DNA of 64,000 nt from an uncultured Gammaproteobacteria bacterium (lineage in GTDB: Bacteria; Patescibacteriota; Patescibacteriia; 2-12-FULL-57-11): positions 2,740-66,739 of the forward strand of contig CAZYLV010000004.1 of NCBI GenBank assembly GCA_964648865.1. Reading direction: 5' to 3'. Shown piece by piece: positions 14,057 through 43,961 of this stretch. The translations under genes and the position numbers were made by a program. The notes beneath the pieces were generated by a model, which was given only the letters and a program-made list of their open reading frames with translations, ran no database searches and was not told the DNA's origin. Every line of letters starts with the position of its first letter. The stretch's first letter is position 1.

Positions 14057-14085
14057 AATATAGCAGGAAAAGTCCGTTTTGTCAA
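14057..14085 (-). promoter_or_regulatory. sigma70-type promoter (TTGACA, 17 nt spacer, TATATT) for the 13909 gene
   Basis: Minus strand: ttgaca aaacggacttttcctgc tatatt. The -35 hexamer directly abuts the glmS stop codon. Confidence 0.5.
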
Positions 14086-20112: not shown

Positions 20113-20141
20113 ACTATAGCATAAAAAGAGCCGCTTGTCAA
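20113..20141 (-). promoter_or_regulatory. sigma70-type promoter (TTGACA, 17 nt spacer, TATAGT) for the 20042 gene; the -35 lies in the loop of the upstream terminator
   Basis: Minus strand: ttgaca agcggctctttttatgc tatagt. Confidence 0.5.
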
Positions 20142-24610: not shown

Positions 24611-25360
24611 ATGCCGGACGCCCCCTCGGGGTTCCTCGCCATCGACAAGCCCGCGGGCTGGACCAGCCACGACGTCGTGGCCAAGCTCCGGCACATCACC
24701 GGGGTCAAGACCATCGGCCACGCCGGGACCCTCGACCCCTTCGCCACGGGACTGCTCATCGTCGGCATCGGCCGCGCGGCCACCAAGCGGCTGGCCGCAT
24801 TCCAGAAACAGGACAAGGAATACCTGGCGAGGGCGCGTTTCGATGGCACGAGCGACACGGATGACGTCACGGGGACGATCACTCACCCCCCAGCCGCGTC
24901 CGTGGGTGATGCGAAGCCAGGGCTCCCGACGGCGCGCAGCGCAGCGAGCACCGGCGGGATGGCGCAGCAGCAGGACCTACGGACGCGGATACAAGCCGCC
25001 TTCGCCGCCGAGGTCGGCACCCGCCCGCAGGCGCCGCCGGCCTACGCCGCCAAGAAGGTCGGCGGCAAGAAGATGTACGAGCTGGCCCGCGCCGGGAAAG
25101 CCGTCGACGCCAAGCCCGTCCCCATCACGATCGCCGCCATCGACGTCACGCGCATCGCCTGGCCGGAGGTCGACTTCACCATCACCTGCTCGACCGGCAC
25201 CTACGTCCGCGCCGTGGCCCGCGACGTCGGCGAGCGGCTCGGGACCGGCGGCTATCTCACGGCGCTCCGCCGCACGCGCAGCGGCGACATCGGCATCGAA
25301 AAAGCGCTCTCCCTGGAGCGCCTCACCGCGGACACCTGGACCTCCTTCTTATGGACATAA
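24611..25360 (+). CDS. truB: tRNA pseudouridine(55) synthase
   Basis: 250 aa from the ATG at 24611 (in frame within the long artefactual ORF). The catalytic GTLDPFATGLL motif is present. Confidence 0.85.
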   Translation: MPDAPSGFLAIDKPAGWTSHDVVAKLRHITGVKTIGHAGTLDPFATGLLIVGIGRAATKRLAAFQKQDKEYLARARFDGTSDTDDVTGTITHPPAASVGDAKPGLPTARSAASTGGMAQQQDLRTRIQAAFAAEVGTRPQAPPAYAAKKVGGKKMYELARAGKAVDAKPVPITIAAIDVTRIAWPEVDFTITCSTGTYVRAVARDVGERLGTGGYLTALRRTRSGDIGIEKALSLERLTADTWTSFLWT

Positions 25361-25444
25361 GCATCGCCTGGATCGTCTTCGGGCTCTTCGTGGCGGCCGG
25401 CATCTGGGTCTGGTTCGTCATCGAGTAGGACGCTCGACGTGGGT

Positions 25445-26401
25445 CTAGGACTCGGCGAGGCCCTGCTCGACCGCCGCGACGATCTCCTCGAGCGAGAGGG
25501 CCGTCGGCTCGATATGCTGCGGGTTGATGCCGCCGTTCTGCAGCGTGTTGGCCATGACGTCGTAGAACCACATCGGCAGCGCCTCCACCCGCCCCGGTGC
25601 GCCGAGCGCCTCCGCCGGCACGTCGAGGTTGCGCCGCACGGCCTCGGCGTCGCGGATGCGCGTCATGATCGGCCGCAGGTCCACGTTGCGCTTCTGGTTG
25701 CTGATGAGGTTGATGTGGCCCGTGCCCAGCCGCTGCACGACCAGGTCCACGTGGAAGTAGGCGCGCAGGAACCCGGGCAGGGCGATGTTGTCGCTCTCGA
25801 GCACGGCCACCTTCCAGGCGCCGCGCTTCCCTTTGACGGAGAACTCCCGCCCTTTCCCCGTGGCCTTGAGTTCCTTCCACTCCTTGGGGTTCTCCTCAAG
25901 CCGCTGACGTTGCTCGCGGACGTGGGCGCGGAAGAGCCGGAGCACCATCTCGAGCAGCGAGCCGGGGTCGTCGCGGTGGACGCGGTTGTAGGTGGACATG
26001 AGCCCGGACAGCCCGAAGGCCCGATCGAGCGGGTCGGCGGAGAGCGTCCCCTTCCCTTCCAGGTCGTCGCGCTTGGCGTAGGCCAGGAGCTTTTGGAGCG
26101 CCGGGTCCTTGTCGACGCCGAGCGTCTTCGCCACGAGCGTCGCCGCGCTGTCCTTGGTGGCGCGGCCGGCCGCCGAGTGATGGTCGAACATGCCGCCGCC
26201 CAAGTCGATGGGCAGCGTGCCCTTGGCCTCGAGCTCCGCCGCGGTCGTGCCGTCCGGCAGCGCCGTCCAAAAGACGACCTCGGCCTTGGCGATGCCGGGG
26301 AAGCGCTTCTCCCCGTAGTCCTGGAGCAGGAGCACCGCGGCGACGGTGTCCGGCTGGACCTTGGGGAAGATGGCGATGGTGTGCACCGGGCGCGGCTCCA
26401 T
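25445..26401 (-). CDS. hypothetical protein (weak DHH-phosphoesterase-like motif GGGMFDHH)
   Basis: 318 aa from the ATG at 26401; the ORF track extends upstream through an Arg-rich artefact. No confident family assignment. Confidence 0.45.
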   Translation of the reverse strand: MEPRPVHTIAIFPKVQPDTVAAVLLLQDYGEKRFPGIAKAEVVFWTALPDGTTAAELEAKGTLPIDLGGGMFDHHSAAGRATKDSAATLVAKTLGVDKDPALQKLLAYAKRDDLEGKGTLSADPLDRAFGLSGLMSTYNRVHRDDPGSLLEMVLRLFRAHVREQRQRLEENPKEWKELKATGKGREFSVKGKRGAWKVAVLESDNIALPGFLRAYFHVDLVVQRLGTGHINLISNQKRNVDLRPIMTRIRDAEAVRRNLDVPAEALGAPGRVEALPMWFYDVMANTLQNGGINPQHIEPTALSLEEIVAAVEQGLAES

Positions 26402-26525
26402 ACCCGGACATTCTACTATAGATAAAAGAAACCGGCGGAGAAGGAGGGCATCCCGTGAGGGACGCGCCGTACCTTCTCCGCCGTGTGTCCCGCCGAGGCG
26501 GAATCGCGCCCGGAGGCGCGGTGCG

Positions 26526-27923
26526 CTACTTCCGCGAGACCTCCAGCGCCACCGCCTCGAGCTCCGCGACGATCTCCCCGAGGGGGATCTTCGTGGGCGG
26601 GGTGTCACCGTAGGAGTGGCCGCCGTTGAGGATGCAGCCGAACTTGGGATCGTGGAACCACAGGCGCGGCTCCCGCTTGAGGAGCTCGCGCGCGATCCGC
26701 TCGATGGGAACGGTCCGGTCCGTGAGCACCGAGACGTTGCCCTTGTCGTTGACCACCACGATGATCCGCACGGGGTAGCGTCGGAACGCCGCCCGCGGGA
26801 ACCGCGTGTTGCGCGCGACGGCCGGATCGACGTGGCTGATCACCACCCCGAACCCACCGCCGAACCTGGTGACGACCACCCCGTCGAGGAGGTCGTCGGC
26901 CTTGTCGTTCTGGATGGACGACTGGGCCACGATGTTGACGAGGACGTTGTCCCCCTCGTCCCAGACCTCCTGCTCGCTCTTGCCGAGCGCCACCAGGTTG
27001 CGCAGGTGGCTGGCGAGGGTGAAGTGCCGGAAGTCGGTGCCGGCCTGCGTCTCCTCGCGGAAGAGCGCGCCGTAGACCTTGTTGGCCTCCAGCGACTCCG
27101 TCGTCGGGAGGTCCAGCGTGCCCTCGGCCAGGCCGACCCGGACCTTGAAGTCCGCCTCGATGACCGCGAGCGTCCAGTCGACGACCATGTCCATGGTCCA
27201 GTCGACCGGCTTCATGGCCTCGCGCTCCTCCGGCGTCCAGGTGGCGGGCTTGCACAGCTCGCGCATCAGGTACACCACGGAGTTGTTCGCGTGCTTGAGC
27301 AGCCCGGTCCCGTTGTTGCGCCCCGCGAGGAGCACGTAGTGGAGCGCGATGCGCTCCCGCACGTCGGTCACGGTCCGCTCGACCACGTCGTGAGCGTTGA
27401 CCTCGCGGCCGCGGTACCAGACCGTGCCGGCGAAGGCGCGCTTGCGGCCGCGTTCGGTGCCGGTGATCCACTCGTGGGTGGCCACGAAGAGTCCGTCGAG
27501 GCCCCACTTCTGGATCAACCCGAGGTCCAACGCCACGCACTCGCATGCGCTCGCCGTCCCGCGGGTCTGGTACTTGTTCCGACCGAGATCGATCGGATAG
27601 GTGAGCCCCTGGCGCCAGCGGCGCTCGAGGGCCTCGGTCGGCCGGTTGCCGCCCGAGAGGATGCCCCGCGGGTTCTTGTAGACCCGGTCGCCGCCCCAGA
27701 ACGAGGCGTTGACCTCGCTCCACGACTTCCTGAGCCCGAAGGTCAGGAAGAGGAAGAGCGCGAGGACCTTCTCGAACGGGGGGTTCTGCGGGAGGATGAC
27801 GCCGTCGACCTCGTCGATCGGCATCCCCTGGATCATCCGGCTCTCGACCTTCGGCGCCGGCTGCGCCTTGCGGGTGCCGCCGAACTTCTTGTTGAAGGCC
27901 GTAATCGGGTTCTTGTTCGCCAT
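26526..27923 (-). CDS. hypothetical protein (465 aa)
   Basis: ATG at 27923 preceded by GGAGAG. No recognised domain. Expressed from its own canonical promoter with a roughly 215-nt leader. Confidence 0.55.
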   Translation of the reverse strand: MANKNPITAFNKKFGGTRKAQPAPKVESRMIQGMPIDEVDGVILPQNPPFEKVLALFLFLTFGLRKSWSEVNASFWGGDRVYKNPRGILSGGNRPTEALERRWRQGLTYPIDLGRNKYQTRGTASACECVALDLGLIQKWGLDGLFVATHEWITGTERGRKRAFAGTVWYRGREVNAHDVVERTVTDVRERIALHYVLLAGRNNGTGLLKHANNSVVYLMRELCKPATWTPEEREAMKPVDWTMDMVVDWTLAVIEADFKVRVGLAEGTLDLPTTESLEANKVYGALFREETQAGTDFRHFTLASHLRNLVALGKSEQEVWDEGDNVLVNIVAQSSIQNDKADDLLDGVVVTRFGGGFGVVISHVDPAVARNTRFPRAAFRRYPVRIIVVVNDKGNVSVLTDRTVPIERIARELLKREPRLWFHDPKFGCILNGGHSYGDTPPTKIPLGEIVAELEAVALEVSRK

Positions 27924-28145
27924 CGCACTCTCCTCGTGGGCCCCGGGATTGGGGCGGGCGTCCCGCCTTGGCGGGACATTTTTGACCGTCCCCACCATGG
28001 GGCCGGCCGCCTAACCCTCAGGACCGAAAATCCGATCCGAACGGTTCGACGGCCAGCCAGGCCTCGGGAAAGCGCGTTCTAAGCCTGTGTTGTCAATGTC
28101 CGGCGCGTCATCGCCGGGCACGATTTGCCCATTCAATGACGGGCT

Positions 28146-28174
28146 TTTATACCATATCCTCCAGGTTTTGTCAA
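28146..28174 (-). promoter_or_regulatory. sigma70-type promoter (TTGACA, 17 nt spacer, TATAAA) for the 465-aa gene
   Basis: Minus strand: ttgaca aaacctggaggatatgg tataaa. Confidence 0.5.
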
Positions 28175-28264
28175 GAGTGCCTGTACAGCCAATTTGGCTC
28201 AACACAAAGAAAACGCCGCCCAGCGAGAGCTGGACGGCTGCGGAATCGCTTGGGTTTTCGGCAA

Positions 28265-29473
28265 TCAGGCGAATTCCAGGGCCTGGATGAACCGCGTCTC
28301 GAGCTCGGCAGCCCCGAAGGGCAGGTCCCCGAGGTACGGATCGCCCTCGTGACGGTTGGCCACGCAGGCGCCGTGCTGGTCGAGGTAGATCGGGCTCCAG
28401 TCGACGAACCCGGGCGCCGAGGCCTGGGCCGCGCGCTGCTCGCTCAGACGCTGGCCGTGGAAGGCCAGGCGCAGGCGACCGGCGGCCACGATCAGCCGCT
28501 CGCGGACCGCGCCCTTGTTGCCGATCACCTGGGCGAAGAACCCGCCGTCCTCGACGCGGACCGCCACGTCCGCGCCCTGGACGTGCTCGCGGATCCAGGC
28601 TGCGGCCAGCGGGCTCGGGCTCCGGCAGACGGCCAAGGCCAGCGGACCGAGCGTGCCGGAAGCGTCCGGCAGGCCCACCGTGACGAGCCGACCGCTCGCC
28701 GACCAGTCGGCCTCGGCCTGGCGGAGCCAGGCACGGGTGGCGAGCGCCGCGCGCATCGCCGTCTTGCCGAAGGTCCACGGCCGGCGCTGCAGCCGCATCC
28801 AGGCGCTGAGCGCCGGGATATTGGCCGTCTCCGGCTTGTTGAGGCCCCCGGAGACCATGCGGTCGAAGAGCAGCCCGGCCAGCACGCGGCTGCCCTCCTC
28901 GGCCTCGGCCCTGGACGTCTTGCCGCGGTCGGCGAGCAGCCACAGCACGCGGACGACCATCTCCGGGGTGGGAGCCACCCCGGGGTACCACGGCTCGCAG
29001 GCCTTGGGGTCGCCGCGCACCCAGTCGCCCGGCTCGGAGAACCCGGCGGCCATGTGCATGCAGACCCGCTCGAGGACCTGCTCCGGGCCGCGGCCCTCGA
29101 AGACCCCAGCGCCGTCGCCCACCCCGAGCAGCAGGTATCCCTCCCGCTCGAAACGCCGGCTGAGCGGCTCCCCCGGCTCCTCCGCATCGGGCGGGGGCTC
29201 GAGGTCGCGCATCCAGTGCGGCCCCATGGCGGCGCGGACGATCCGCGCTCCAGGCTCGACCGAACCCTTCCAGTACGGATGGCGGGTCAACGCCGCCGCC
29301 GCCACCCAGCCCGCCACGCCCGTGCGCGGGATGACGATGGTATGCCGGAGCGGCACGCCCCTCTCCTGCGGCTCCTCAGTGGGAGCGTCGCTGGAGGAGG
29401 CGGGCCCCCAGGCCTGCGCTTGCCCCTGCCGGGCTTCCTGCCGCCGGTCGCGGCGCTTTCCCCTCCGTCCCAT
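28265..29473 (-). CDS. hypothetical protein (402 aa)
   Basis: ATG preceded by GAGAGGAGGAACGGA. No recognised domain. Divergent from rny. Confidence 0.5.
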   Translation of the reverse strand: MGRRGKRRDRRQEARQGQAQAWGPASSSDAPTEEPQERGVPLRHTIVIPRTGVAGWVAAAALTRHPYWKGSVEPGARIVRAAMGPHWMRDLEPPPDAEEPGEPLSRRFEREGYLLLGVGDGAGVFEGRGPEQVLERVCMHMAAGFSEPGDWVRGDPKACEPWYPGVAPTPEMVVRVLWLLADRGKTSRAEAEEGSRVLAGLLFDRMVSGGLNKPETANIPALSAWMRLQRRPWTFGKTAMRAALATRAWLRQAEADWSASGRLVTVGLPDASGTLGPLALAVCRSPSPLAAAWIREHVQGADVAVRVEDGGFFAQVIGNKGAVRERLIVAAGRLRLAFHGQRLSEQRAAQASAPGFVDWSPIYLDQHGACVANRHEGDPYLGDLPFGAAELETRFIQALEFA

Positions 29474-29771
29474 TCCGTTCCTCCTCTCGTTTCCCTCGTC
29501 CTCCGGACCATCCGGAAAGACCGGTCAATCTAGCACAATTCTTGCTCCCGGTCAACCCCCGTGCTAGAGTCGCCGAAGAGTCTTGAATCGTACCTGCGGC
29601 ACTCCACGCACCGGTCGTACCTGTCGCCGATAGGGAAACTGCCATGAGGAACGCACTCGCATCGTCTCTCGCTCCGTCCGGACGGCCGACCGCGCTCGGC
29701 CGGCCTTTGCGTTGACTCCCGACACGTTTCCACGGTGAGAGGTGCCGGCGCCGGAAGGCCGCCTGACACCT

Positions 29772-31298
29772 ATGTCCCCCGTTTTCCTCATCCTCACTGC
29801 CCTCCTCGGCGCCGCCGCGGGAGGCGCGGTCGGTTTTGCGCTCCGCCAGAAGCTGGCGGCCGGCAAGATCGGCTCCGCCGAGGCCAAGGCCCAGCAGATC
29901 CTCAGCGACGCCAAAGCCCAGGCCCAAAAGGCCGCGCTGGACGCCAGCGACAAGGGGCTCAAGCTCGTCGAAGACGCCAAGCGCGAGGCCGCGGCCCTGC
30001 GCAACGAGCTCAACGAAGAGAAGAAGCGCGTCGAGAAGCGCGAGGCGCTCTTCGACCAGAAGCTCCTGGAATTCCAGGACAAGGTCACCAAGCTCGCGGA
30101 GAAAGCCGCGGCCGTCGAAGCCGACCGGGCCGCCACGGCGGCACTCAAGGACGAGCAGATCGAGAAGCTCCAGGCCATCGCCGGTCTGACGCGCGACGAG
30201 GCCGCCGAGCGGCTCATGGCCCTCGTCGAGGAGGCGCAGAAGGAGGAGATCGTCTCGCGCATCCGCAAGATGGAGCAGGTCACCGCCGAGGACCTCGAGG
30301 TCAAGGCCAAGAACGTCCTGGCCACGACCATCCAGCGGCTGGCGTCCTCGCACGCCGTCGACACCACGACGACCGCCGTACAGCTGCCCTCCGACGACAT
30401 GAAGGGCCGCGTCATCGGCAAGGAGGGACGCAACATCAAGGCCATCGAGAACCTCACCGGCTGCGAGCTCATCGTCGACGACACGCCCGGCATCATCACC
30501 ATCTCGGGTTTCTCGCCCGTCCGCCGGCAGATCGCCAAGCGCGCGCTCGACAAGCTGCTCGCCGACGGCCGCATCCACCCCGGCCGGATCGAGGAAGCCG
30601 TCGAGGAGGCCAAGAAGGAGCTCAACCAGGACATGAAGAAAGCCGGTGAGGACGCGCTCTACGAGCTCGGCATCACCGGCGTCGACCCCAAGCTGATACA
30701 GATCCTCGGGCGGCTCAAGTTCCGCACGAGCTACGGCCAGAACGCGCTCCAGCACTCCATGGAGGTCGCCCAGCTCGCCACCCTCATGGCCGAGGAGCTC
30801 GGCGCCGACATCACCGTCTGCAAGAAGGGCGGCCTGTTCCACGACATCGGCAAGGCCGTGGACCATGACATCCAGGGCTCGCACCCGGAGATCGGCTACA
30901 ACATCATGAAGAAGTTCGGCTTCCCGGAGGAGCTCTGCTACCAGTCCATCGGCCACCACGAGGACAAACCGAGGACGCTCGAGGCGATCATCGTGAAGGC
31001 CGCCGACGCCATCTCCGGCGCCCGGCCCGGCGCGCGCAAGGACACGCTCGCCGAGTACGTCCGCCGGCTCGAGGAGCTCGAGAACGTGGCCACGTCCTTC
31101 CCCGGGGTCGAGAAGGCCTACGCCATCCAGGCCGGCCGCGACCTGCGCGTCTTCGTCTCGCCCAAGGCCGTGGACGACTTCGCCGCCTACCGGTTGGCCA
31201 AGGACATCGCCAGCCGCATCGAGAGCGAGCTCAAGTACCCCGGCGAGATCCGCGTCACCGTCATCCGCGAGACGCGCGTGATGGAGGTCGCCCGGTGA
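29772..31298 (+). CDS. rny: ribonuclease Y
   Basis: N-terminal TM helix, coiled coil, KH domain (GRVIGKEGRNIK) and HD domain (HSMEVA...GLFHDIGK). An alternative GTG start lies at 29742. Confidence 0.9.
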   Translation: MSPVFLILTALLGAAAGGAVGFALRQKLAAGKIGSAEAKAQQILSDAKAQAQKAALDASDKGLKLVEDAKREAAALRNELNEEKKRVEKREALFDQKLLEFQDKVTKLAEKAAAVEADRAATAALKDEQIEKLQAIAGLTRDEAAERLMALVEEAQKEEIVSRIRKMEQVTAEDLEVKAKNVLATTIQRLASSHAVDTTTTAVQLPSDDMKGRVIGKEGRNIKAIENLTGCELIVDDTPGIITISGFSPVRRQIAKRALDKLLADGRIHPGRIEEAVEEAKKELNQDMKKAGEDALYELGITGVDPKLIQILGRLKFRTSYGQNALQHSMEVAQLATLMAEELGADITVCKKGGLFHDIGKAVDHDIQGSHPEIGYNIMKKFGFPEELCYQSIGHHEDKPRTLEAIIVKAADAISGARPGARKDTLAEYVRRLEELENVATSFPGVEKAYAIQAGRDLRVFVSPKAVDDFAAYRLAKDIASRIESELKYPGEIRVTVIRETRVMEVAR

Positions 31299-43780: not shown

Positions 43781-43885
43781 GCTTCTAGCCTACGCCCAGC
43801 AGCGATGCGCCGAAATGTCAAGGTGCCCACGCTTATTGACCTTCAAAGAAGGAACGGCTATAGTTCTCGCCGTATTCCGAAAAAC

Positions 43886-43961
43886 GCAGCGGTCGCTCAG
43901 CTGGTCGAGCCGGGGCCTCTTAAGCCCAGGGCCCTGGGTGCGATCCCCAGCCGCGGCACCA
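43886..43961 (+). tRNA. tRNA-Lys(CTT)-like gene with atypical features; possibly a pseudogene or tRNA-like element
   Basis: 76 nt with the cloverleaf foldable by hand. Acceptor stem gcagcgg/ccgcggc has one A-G mismatch. D-arm gctc/gagc with GG. Anticodon loop ctCTTaa. T-arm ctggg-tgcgatc-cccag has G55 instead of U. CCA is encoded, and a plus-strand terminator follows. Confidence 0.4.

Follow-up and report, generated by a model that had tools for sequence, protein, structure and literature searches.

How is a pair of adjacent genes for proteins of no recognised family controlled, and what is the long, hairpin-forming sequence ahead of the first of them? The question is raised by the minus strand of a 64-kb stretch of DNA (68% GC; hereafter the window) from contig CAZYLV010000004.1 of a Patescibacteria assembly (GCA_964648865.1). 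An initial annotation had proposed that a canonical promoter and a structured leader of some 215 nucleotides (nt) precede gene B, with gene C following. Contigs of all B homologue clusters (i.e. L001-L009) were fetched for comparison. Judged by sequence comparison, the leader is a real and previously undescribed 5' RNA, supported by covariation and preceded by a strong promoter that is likewise conserved. It belongs to no described family and is probably a new regulatory RNA restricted to this lineage. The principal features are:

28146..28174, minus strand: sigma-70-type promoter, TTGACA (28174-28169), 17-nt spacer ending in TGG, TATAAA (28151-28146)
27924..28140, minus strand: whole leader RNA, ~216 nt, from the putative start, an invariant G, to the last base ahead of the ATG
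27921..27935, minus strand: Shine-Dalgarno (SD) sequence GAGGAG (27935-27930) and ATG of B (27923-27921)
27923..26526, minus strand: gene B, open reading frame (ORF) of 465 amino acids (aa), with GAGGAG 8 nt ahead of its ATG
26401..25445, minus strand: gene C, 318-aa ORF

The promoter of gene B matches the consensus at 11 of 12 positions and has an extended -10 element (i.e. TGn). Both strands of the window together contained just three sites matching at 11 or more of 12 positions, as compared to 0.04 expected under a first-order Markov model, and all three carry the TGn extension. The arrangement TTGACAA-N13-(T/A)GGTATAAA, with the same spacing and hexamers, was present in 7/7 related loci. 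Hexamers, a spacing within 16-18 nt, conservation and a sensible distance to the gene are all those of a sigma-70-type promoter, and the TTGACA-17-TATAAA promoter of the initial annotation is upheld. An automated promoter scan overlooked this site solely because it requires the -10 hexamer to end in T. The two other 11/12 TGn promoters, both on the minus strand, are located at 20113-20141 (TTGACA-17-TATAGT) and 14057-14085 (TTGACA-17-TATATT) and have leaders of about 65 and about 135 nt, respectively, the longer of which holds hairpins such as ccccgtggaaacgggg. A semi-conserved RGCCRWTTYGNCT occurs 12-30 nt upstream of the -35 of the B promoter, at a variable distance, in 6/7 loci (28180-28210 on the minus strand of the window, where it forms the inverted repeat GCCAA-A-TTGGC). 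This element could be a transcription-factor site or a UP-like element.

The block from promoter to start codon was alignable in all seven distinct loci. Leader identities to the window were 83%, 70% and 58-63%, and those of the B proteins 86% (L001) and 44-49% (others). The invariant G at 28140 lies 6 nt past the -10, and the leader is 65% GC, with a minimum free energy (MFE) of -116.7 kcal/mol in the window (z = -5.45 against dinucleotide shuffles). A consensus fold of 53 pairs in seven helices was assembled from 50 pairs predicted by RNAalifold and a hairpin, P1b, added by inspection. In this fold 90.9% of cells were paired as compared to 38-50% when the 3' partners were slid by 1-3 columns, and 21 pairs exhibited compensatory changes on both sides as compared to 5-10 when slid. 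None of 500 column shuffles matched the observed percentage paired, the both-side-changed pairs and cells or the covariation score, and 3/500 reached the observed number of further pair types. About 60 leader positions are invariant, many of them unpaired, within the covarying scaffold, i.e. the leader presents an aptamer-like fold with covariation and conserved unpaired nucleotides. The long structured leader that had been proposed is hence conserved in relatives, and the alignment that had been suggested as a check extends to seven loci with 21 compensatory pairs. Cells with G-U outnumbered those with A-C (39 versus 9), an excess which favours the minus (B-sense) strand, and the percentage paired was 90.9% on this strand versus 82.6% on the opposite strand.

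A covariance model (i.e. R1) was built from the leader alignment; the training loci match it by construction, with scores of 153-203 bits. Exactly one full-length copy was found per training locus and none elsewhere in the window, and an R1 search detected an eighth copy in L133, truncated at the end of its contig. The leader always adjoins the start of B, even in L008 and L009, where the gene that lies upstream of B in the window (gene A) is absent. The order of hairpin P5, SD and start codon (ATG or GTG) is fixed in 7/7 loci. Alignment of the B proteins placed the true starts directly after the conserved non-coding block, several gene calls being over-extended. The elements of the leader, from 5' to 3', are:

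28108..28140, minus strand: P1/P1a hairpin (helices 1-2), GUCAU...AUGAC around GGGC-AAAUCGU-GCCC
28082..28107, minus strand: P1b hairpin region (helix 3), conserved loop CAUUGACAAC (28098-28089), consensus CMUUGAMAAY
28059..28081, minus strand: variable linker, in which CGCGCUUUCC (28076-28067) is complementary to GGAGAGUGCG (27933-27924)
28003..28058, minus strand: P2, a hairpin of 22 base pairs (bp; helix 4), invariant core CGAACCGU / AGGGUUAG
27990..28002, minus strand: P3 hairpin CCCC-AUGGU-GGGG, conserved helix 5
27977..27987, minus strand: single-stranded junction GGUCAAAAAUG, consensus GUSAAAAAUG
27960..27977, minus strand: P4 hairpin GUCCCGCC-AAGG-CGGGAC (helix 6), 5/8 pairs compensatory
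27940..27955, minus strand: P5 hairpin GCCCC-AAUCCC-GGGGC (helix 7), ending 4 nt before the SD

P1 begins at about +3 of the putative transcript; the stretches AAUGG and UCGUGCC are conserved in P1/P1a, and pair 4:32 is AU in three loci, UA in two and UG in two. P2 is 96.6% paired, with eight compensatory pairs, including 119:164 (UA in four, CG in three) and 120:163 (GC in four, CG in three), and with two conserved purine-purine mismatches flanking AACC/GGUU. P5 has three compensatory pairs (245:256 is CG in four, UA in two and UG in one), and P3 gains an outer stem in L005, L007, L008 and L009. The AAAAAUG of the junction is invariant (alignment columns A198-G204). The weakest helix is P1b, which is 75.6% paired with two compensatory pairs and has only 3 bp (GCC/GGC) in the window. 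Three hairpins had been named in the initial annotation, two of which are recovered (cccca-tgg-tgggg as P3 and gtcccgcc-aag-gcgggac as P4); for the third, cgaaccg-ttcgg, the conserved fold has no local hairpin, CGAACC pairing instead with GGUUAG within P2. Tertiary pairings were considered by eye between the P1b loop UUGAC and the junction GUCAA and between the loops of P1b and P5; these can form in the window/L001/L003 group, fail in L005-L009 and were set aside. A possible second copy of P1a near the gene for RNase Y was an 8.8-bit match in L005 and L006 that is absent from the window, and was discarded.

No known RNA class was recognised in the leader, as had been anticipated. The Rfam 15 library (4227 models) at gathering thresholds detected only three tRNAs in the whole window; at E<=10, positions 25000-30000 gave only PyrR201 (24.6 bits, gathering threshold 49, plus strand) and EcpR1 (21.5 bits, gathering threshold 60), and no match was obtained in the leaders of five relatives at E<=5. 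The suggestion of an attenuator did not hold: the sense strand of 27924-28140 lacks a hairpin with a U-tract, no U-run follows P2 to P5, and the leader is therefore not a classical attenuator. On the plus strand, the reverse complement of P4 with AUUUUUGA (27960-27985) looks like an intrinsic terminator; the terminator scan listed there a 7-bp hairpin with six GC pairs followed by ATTTTTGACC, and P4 read in reverse complement, with ATTTTTGA after it, scores as a terminator, with no gene or promoter upstream on that strand. A literature search found no structured regulatory RNA published for Patescibacteria (Candidate Phyla Radiation), and nothing on leaders of DHH genes beyond work on the riboswitch for cyclic di-AMP (c-di-AMP).

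The distribution of the leader was traced through its downstream genes. Only seven homologue clusters of B were found among 5.8 billion proteins, and an exhaustive HMMER search (1.84 billion) returned eight representatives at E<=1e-30; a profile search for further homologues added only the L130 protein. More distant B orthologues were reached through homologues of C, in L130 (B 37% and C 69% identity) and L131 (B 47% and C 66% identity). In both, a TTGACA promoter precedes the leader, which is about 260 nt long in L130 (247-542) and 215 nt in L131 (3575-3826) and very stable (z = -4.95 and -6.3, respectively). Homology of these leaders to the motif was rejected, with no match under default filters and best scores of 0.9 and 5.3 bits once the filters were switched off; they may be regulatory RNAs of an analogous kind. 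On the loci recovered, the motif is confined to the clade in which C is at least about 73% identical to that of the window, and a long structured leader ahead of B is, to judge from predicted folds, a wider trait than the motif itself. Leader turnover together with fast evolution of B could be taken to favour a protein partner that co-evolves with the RNA rather than a universal metabolite.

Pattern searches added no copies. The DNA pattern CGAAC-N18-32-GGTTRGGC-N20-50-AAAAATG gave 120 matches in unrelated phyla on genome contigs and was discarded as too loose; when 80 of these loci were scanned with R1, none exceeded 16 bits and none matched at the pattern site. A stricter pattern had no matches on metagenome contigs, a scan of metagenome contigs for loci related by the B protein gave 210 pattern stretches, none of which was confirmed by tblastn, and six chance matches on viral contigs were not confirmed by R1. 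The JGI metagenome collection apparently lacks this clade.

Neither protein had been assigned to a family, and searches of Pfam, NCBIfam and PHROGs gave no match to B or C at E<=1; two weak PADLOC matches (E 0.006 and 0.024) were treated as chance. This part of the initial annotation stands for these databases but not for structure, as both proteins can be placed by predicted fold, B only tentatively, in the DHH/DHHA1 superfamily, as distant paralogues. The AlphaFold model of C has a predicted local distance difference test (pLDDT) score of 92.3, and its top 16 PDB matches are all members of the DHH family, including NrnA (4ls9), GdpP (5xt3), Rv2837c, family II pyrophosphatase and RecJ2. Residues D18, D66, D73, H74, H75, D112, D113, Q288, N289, G290 and G291 are invariant in 53 sequences, so that the hint of a DHH motif in the 318-aa protein is supported by an invariant FDHH as well as by predicted fold. 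The catalytic Asp and DHH residues are present, with the correspondence to motifs I-IV drawn from order and spacing rather than superposition. C had no Pfam DHH (PF01368) or DHHA1 (PF02272) match at E<=1, and a profile search of PDB sequences gave no DHH match, so that membership is assigned from fold and motifs only. According to its model, C is a phosphoesterase of the DHH/DHHA1 type whose DHH motif is intact. At E<=0.001, 282 homologues were found; the few named ones belong to Patescibacteria or Candidatus Uhrbacteria, which places the window in a high-GC bacterium of the Candidate Phyla Radiation. Many homologues of C are 510-550 aa in length (e.g. P0044, P0045, P0019 and P0070), and P0044 and P0045 carry PF13563 (2',5' RNA ligase / 2H phosphoesterase), which points to RNA-end or cyclic-phosphate chemistry for the C family.

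The structure prediction that had been suggested for both proteins yielded weaker DHH-family matches for B, whose model has a pLDDT of 72.6; RecJ, Cdc45, NrnA, TM1595 and C-Ala were matched with probabilities of 0.9-0.98 and E>=4.5e-3. The C-terminal domain of B is homologous to that of C (BLASTP E = 1e-4; hhalign probability 94%). In place of DHH, B has N116-K117-Y118-Q119, invariant in seven B sequences, and NGGHS is kept; B is probably a degenerate, non-catalytic DHH paralogue. A suspected resemblance to MYG1 / UPF0160 was not borne out by Pfam, with no PF03690 match at E<=1 for B or C.

In the window, linker positions 28076-28067 are predicted to pair with 27933-27924, a segment that covers the SD and the nucleotides between it and the ATG. 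This duplex has an energy of -21.1 kcal/mol (z = -3.0 and p = 0.01 relative to shuffled versions of the tail), making sequestration of the SD plausible for this leader. An unrelated linker in L005 is predicted to pair with its own SD (p = 0.007), and in L009 a weaker pairing involves the SD and AUG (p = 0.10); these three linkers are not homologous to one another. The probabilities of the SD being unpaired are 0.27 in the window, 0.09 in L005 and 0.33 in L009.

The leader is proposed to be a cis-regulatory RNA acting on the translation or stability of B, with a protein as the favoured effector, a reading to which we give a probability of about 0.55. Transcription would start from the promoter at 28174-28146, and the first ~216 nt would fold as P1/P1a, P1b, P2, P3, P4 and P5. 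Action would follow transcription initiation, on translation initiation and/or mRNA stability of B. The stretches AAUGG, UCGUG and UUGAMAA, the CGAACC/GGUUAG core with its two purine-purine mismatches, and GUSAAAAAUG would constitute a binding surface for a trans-acting factor. In the version found in the window, the default fold would shut the SD/start region through the long-range linker helix, and binding of the factor to the core would then shift translation of B. The effector would most simply be B and/or C, given that the predicted fold of each is one that binds single-stranded nucleic acids; a protein is preferred to a small molecule because the fast-evolving B orthologues of sister lineages carry non-homologous structured leaders. 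Several points weigh against this proposal. The SD is largely accessible in L001, L003, L007 and L008 (unpaired probability 0.69-0.86), where linkers are short or absent, so that sequestration, being absent or weak in four loci, is not the universal mechanism of the conserved core. No conserved alternative (i.e. switching) pairing was found across the seven leaders. The covariation comes from only seven full sequences of one narrow clade, and the shuffle control ignores relatedness. Protein binding to the leader is deduced from fold class and leader turnover, and the start of transcription and the co-transcription of leader and B are likewise deduced from the sequence.

The invariant single strands also bear on other explanations. 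A metabolite riboswitch, in which the core is an aptamer for a nucleotide-derived ligand (e.g. c-di-AMP, pApA or pGpG, pAp, a 2',3'-cyclic nucleoside monophosphate (2',3'-cNMP) or other nanoRNA) and the linker-SD helix is the expression platform, would tune the synthesis of DHH/DHHA1 phosphoesterases that degrade such compounds. The conserved unpaired positions within the covarying scaffold and the SD-sequestering helices of the window and L005 are as expected of such an RNA; the products of the downstream genes have a predicted fold in common with NrnA, GdpP and Rv2837c, whose substrates are nanoRNA, pApA and c-di-AMP, and neighbouring genes encode RNase Y, YmdB and, in relatives, a protein with an HD domain. 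Yet the leader resembles none of the Rfam models even at E<=10, no consistent expression platform is shared by the seven sequences, and the gene directly controlled, B, has no DHH catalytic motif. Moreover, the RNA occurs in one narrow clade and sister lineages with the same gene order use unrelated leaders, which is unusual for sensors of universal metabolites; narrow distribution and leader replacement argue mildly against a metabolite sensor, and this explanation is considered unlikely. Patescibacteria are generally reported to depend on scavenged nucleotides. A more specific form, a riboswitch class confined to Patescibacteria that senses a breakdown product of RNA or a second messenger (candidates being nanoRNA, pApA, c-di-AMP or 2',3'-cNMP) and switches on a DHH salvage/degradation module, is a speculative possibility of slightly lower probability. 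An equally doubtful explanation is a passive 5' untranslated region (UTR), whose 5'-terminal hairpin and compact fold protect the mRNA from 5'-end-dependent decay and hold translation at a fixed low level without sensing. The position of P1 at about +3 and the long, very stable leaders of differing sequence ahead of all B orthologues examined fit selection for structure, but invariant single strands (AAAAAUG, UUGAMAA and AAUGG) across about 40% divergence and an invariant helix core with conserved purine-purine mismatches are left unexplained.

It is still less probable that the RNA is an independent or 5'-UTR-derived small RNA (sRNA), acting in trans, released before the SD and linked to B by chance. 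Such an sRNA would account for a strong promoter of its own right after an upstream terminator and for a sequence that is better conserved than the N-terminus of B, which varies. However, the sense strand has no terminator separating the RNA from B, adjacency to the SD is strict in 7/7 loci, the RNA is found only in genomes with this B subfamily and is replaced as B diverges, and the 64 kb contain no second copy or obvious target-pairing region. Assignment of the conserved feature to the plus strand, as a terminator, possibly of an antisense RNA over the start of B, would draw on the terminator-like hairpin at P4 and on the A-run that is invariant in all relatives. This is very improbable, as the G-U excess and percentage paired favour the minus strand, no plausible plus-strand promoter was found in 27780-27960, and only about 25 of the roughly 216 conserved nt would be accounted for. 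Translation of the leader region as an N-terminal extension of B is the hardest of these explanations to credit. An in-frame ATG at 27998 gives a 490-aa ORF, relatives are annotated with long N-termini (489-544 aa) and a Logan copy of B has 490 aa, but the extensions differ in length and frame and are unalignable as protein, and the nucleotide alignment contains indels of 1, 2 and 13 nt. The upstream ATG sits in the P3 loop and is absent from L003, and each locus has a good SD ahead of the conserved start. The leader is thus regarded as non-coding because the indels are not multiples of three, the extensions cannot be aligned and the upstream ATG is not conserved.

The proposed protein-responsive leader has counterparts among known systems. 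The E. coli rne 5' UTR, pnp leader and rnc leader are autoregulatory leaders of ribonuclease genes and, like the B leader, are long structured 5' UTRs ahead of a gene for a nucleic-acid-degrading fold. Protein-binding autoregulation of this type would explain the lineage-specific co-divergence of leader and protein. The B leader differs in having no homology to these RNAs and in preceding a protein without the DHH catalytic motif, and its binding or cleavage by B or C is hypothetical. The ydaO/kimA c-di-AMP riboswitch (RF00379) and translational riboswitches share with the leader a long covarying multi-helix RNA before the SD, invariant unpaired nt, an SD helix in some members and genes of nucleotide-phosphoesterase type; unlike them, the leader has no Rfam match, is present in eight loci of one Patescibacteria clade and lacks a consistent expression platform. 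C has the two-domain fold of NrnA (4ls9), Rv2837c/CnpB (5jju), the GdpP domain (5xt3) and TM1595 (5o25) (Foldseek probabilities 0.84-0.99); its DHH triad and other aspartates are invariant, and a C-terminal NGG occupies the position of GGGH. It differs from them in its 10-13% identity and in QPD instead of DxD in the motif I region, and global TM-scores were low (0.2-0.3), which fits two hinged domains but does not amount to proof. B weakly matches the structures of Cdc45 (6cc2) and RecJ (2zxr, probability 0.98) and lacks the DHH histidines (NKYQ). The best E value was 4.5e-3 with a medium-confidence model, and B differs in being a bacterial protein of 465 aa with an extra helical insertion and no replication context.

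The leader thereby constitutes a covariation-supported regulatory RNA candidate in Patescibacteria with a defined promoter, fold and target gene: a solid new RNA motif, of narrow distribution, in a poorly understood phylum. Two 'hypothetical' protein families gain a DHH/DHHA1 fold assignment, tentative for B, and the presence of an intact enzyme and a degenerate paralogue beside RNase Y and YmdB points to nanoRNA or nucleotide turnover. If the effector were a metabolite, the leader would be a new riboswitch class; if it were protein B, a pseudo-nuclease would be co-evolving with its own leader.

Further features of the locus are:

29473..28265, minus strand: gene A, 402-aa ORF, upstream of B, with a terminator-like hairpin at its end
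28215..28238, minus strand: intrinsic-terminator-like hairpin ending gene A, 10-bp stem with eight GC pairs, then GTTTTCTTTG
26402..26525, minus strand: B-C intergenic region, three hairpins, MFE -66.9, z = -4.38

The terminator-like hairpin of gene A lies about 40 nt upstream of the B promoter and suggests that this promoter begins a separate transcription unit. The initial annotation had one promoter driving both B and C, which is rendered uncertain by the last hairpin of the B-C region, a 12-bp GC stem followed by U-rich, terminator-like GGUUUCUUUUAU. Next comes TATAGTAGAAT, which ends 8 nt before the ATG of C and lacks an SD. The spacer is 90% identical in L001, too close a relative to be informative. 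A single shared B-C transcript is doubtful from this arrangement, and C may be expressed by read-through or separately, or be leaderless.

Neighbours of A, B and C in the window encode thioredoxin reductase, thioredoxin, IF-2, TruB, RNase Y and a YmdB-like protein. The gene order is kept in relatives as RNase Y (divergent), A, B, in some an HD-domain gene, C, TruB (convergent) and IF-2. Gene A is present in L001, L003, L005 and L007 and absent from L008 and L009; the HD gene is absent from the window and L001. A gene of ~200 aa lies between B and C in L003 (5768-6361), L005 (4443-5054), L007 (3588-4193) and L133 (1627-2235), and an HD domain (PF01966) was detected in its product in L005, L007 and L133 (weak in L007 and L133), with none recorded for L003. 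The gene A product has no family in Pfam, NCBIfam, PHROGs or PADLOC, and was rejected as a third paralogue of B (hhalign probability only 0.2%). A promoter-like site (TTGACC-17-TAGATT, 29555-29527) and a terminator of its own accompany gene A.

Upstream of the RNase Y start, positions 29512-29741 fall inside BLAST nucleotide matches that reach beyond the RNase Y coding region in L003, L005, L007 and L008 (70-81% identity over the whole match). L009 has two separate matches near RNase Y, covering 29559-29630 and 29802-29946. The segment 29512-29741 may represent a conserved RNase Y 5' UTR. Elsewhere in the window, 43886-43958 on the plus strand was called as a tRNA by Rfam (45.4 bits) and not by ARAGORN; by eye it has the anticodon loop CUCUUAA (Lys-CUU) and an A-G mismatch in the acceptor stem, and a promoter-like site is located nearby at 43836-43864.

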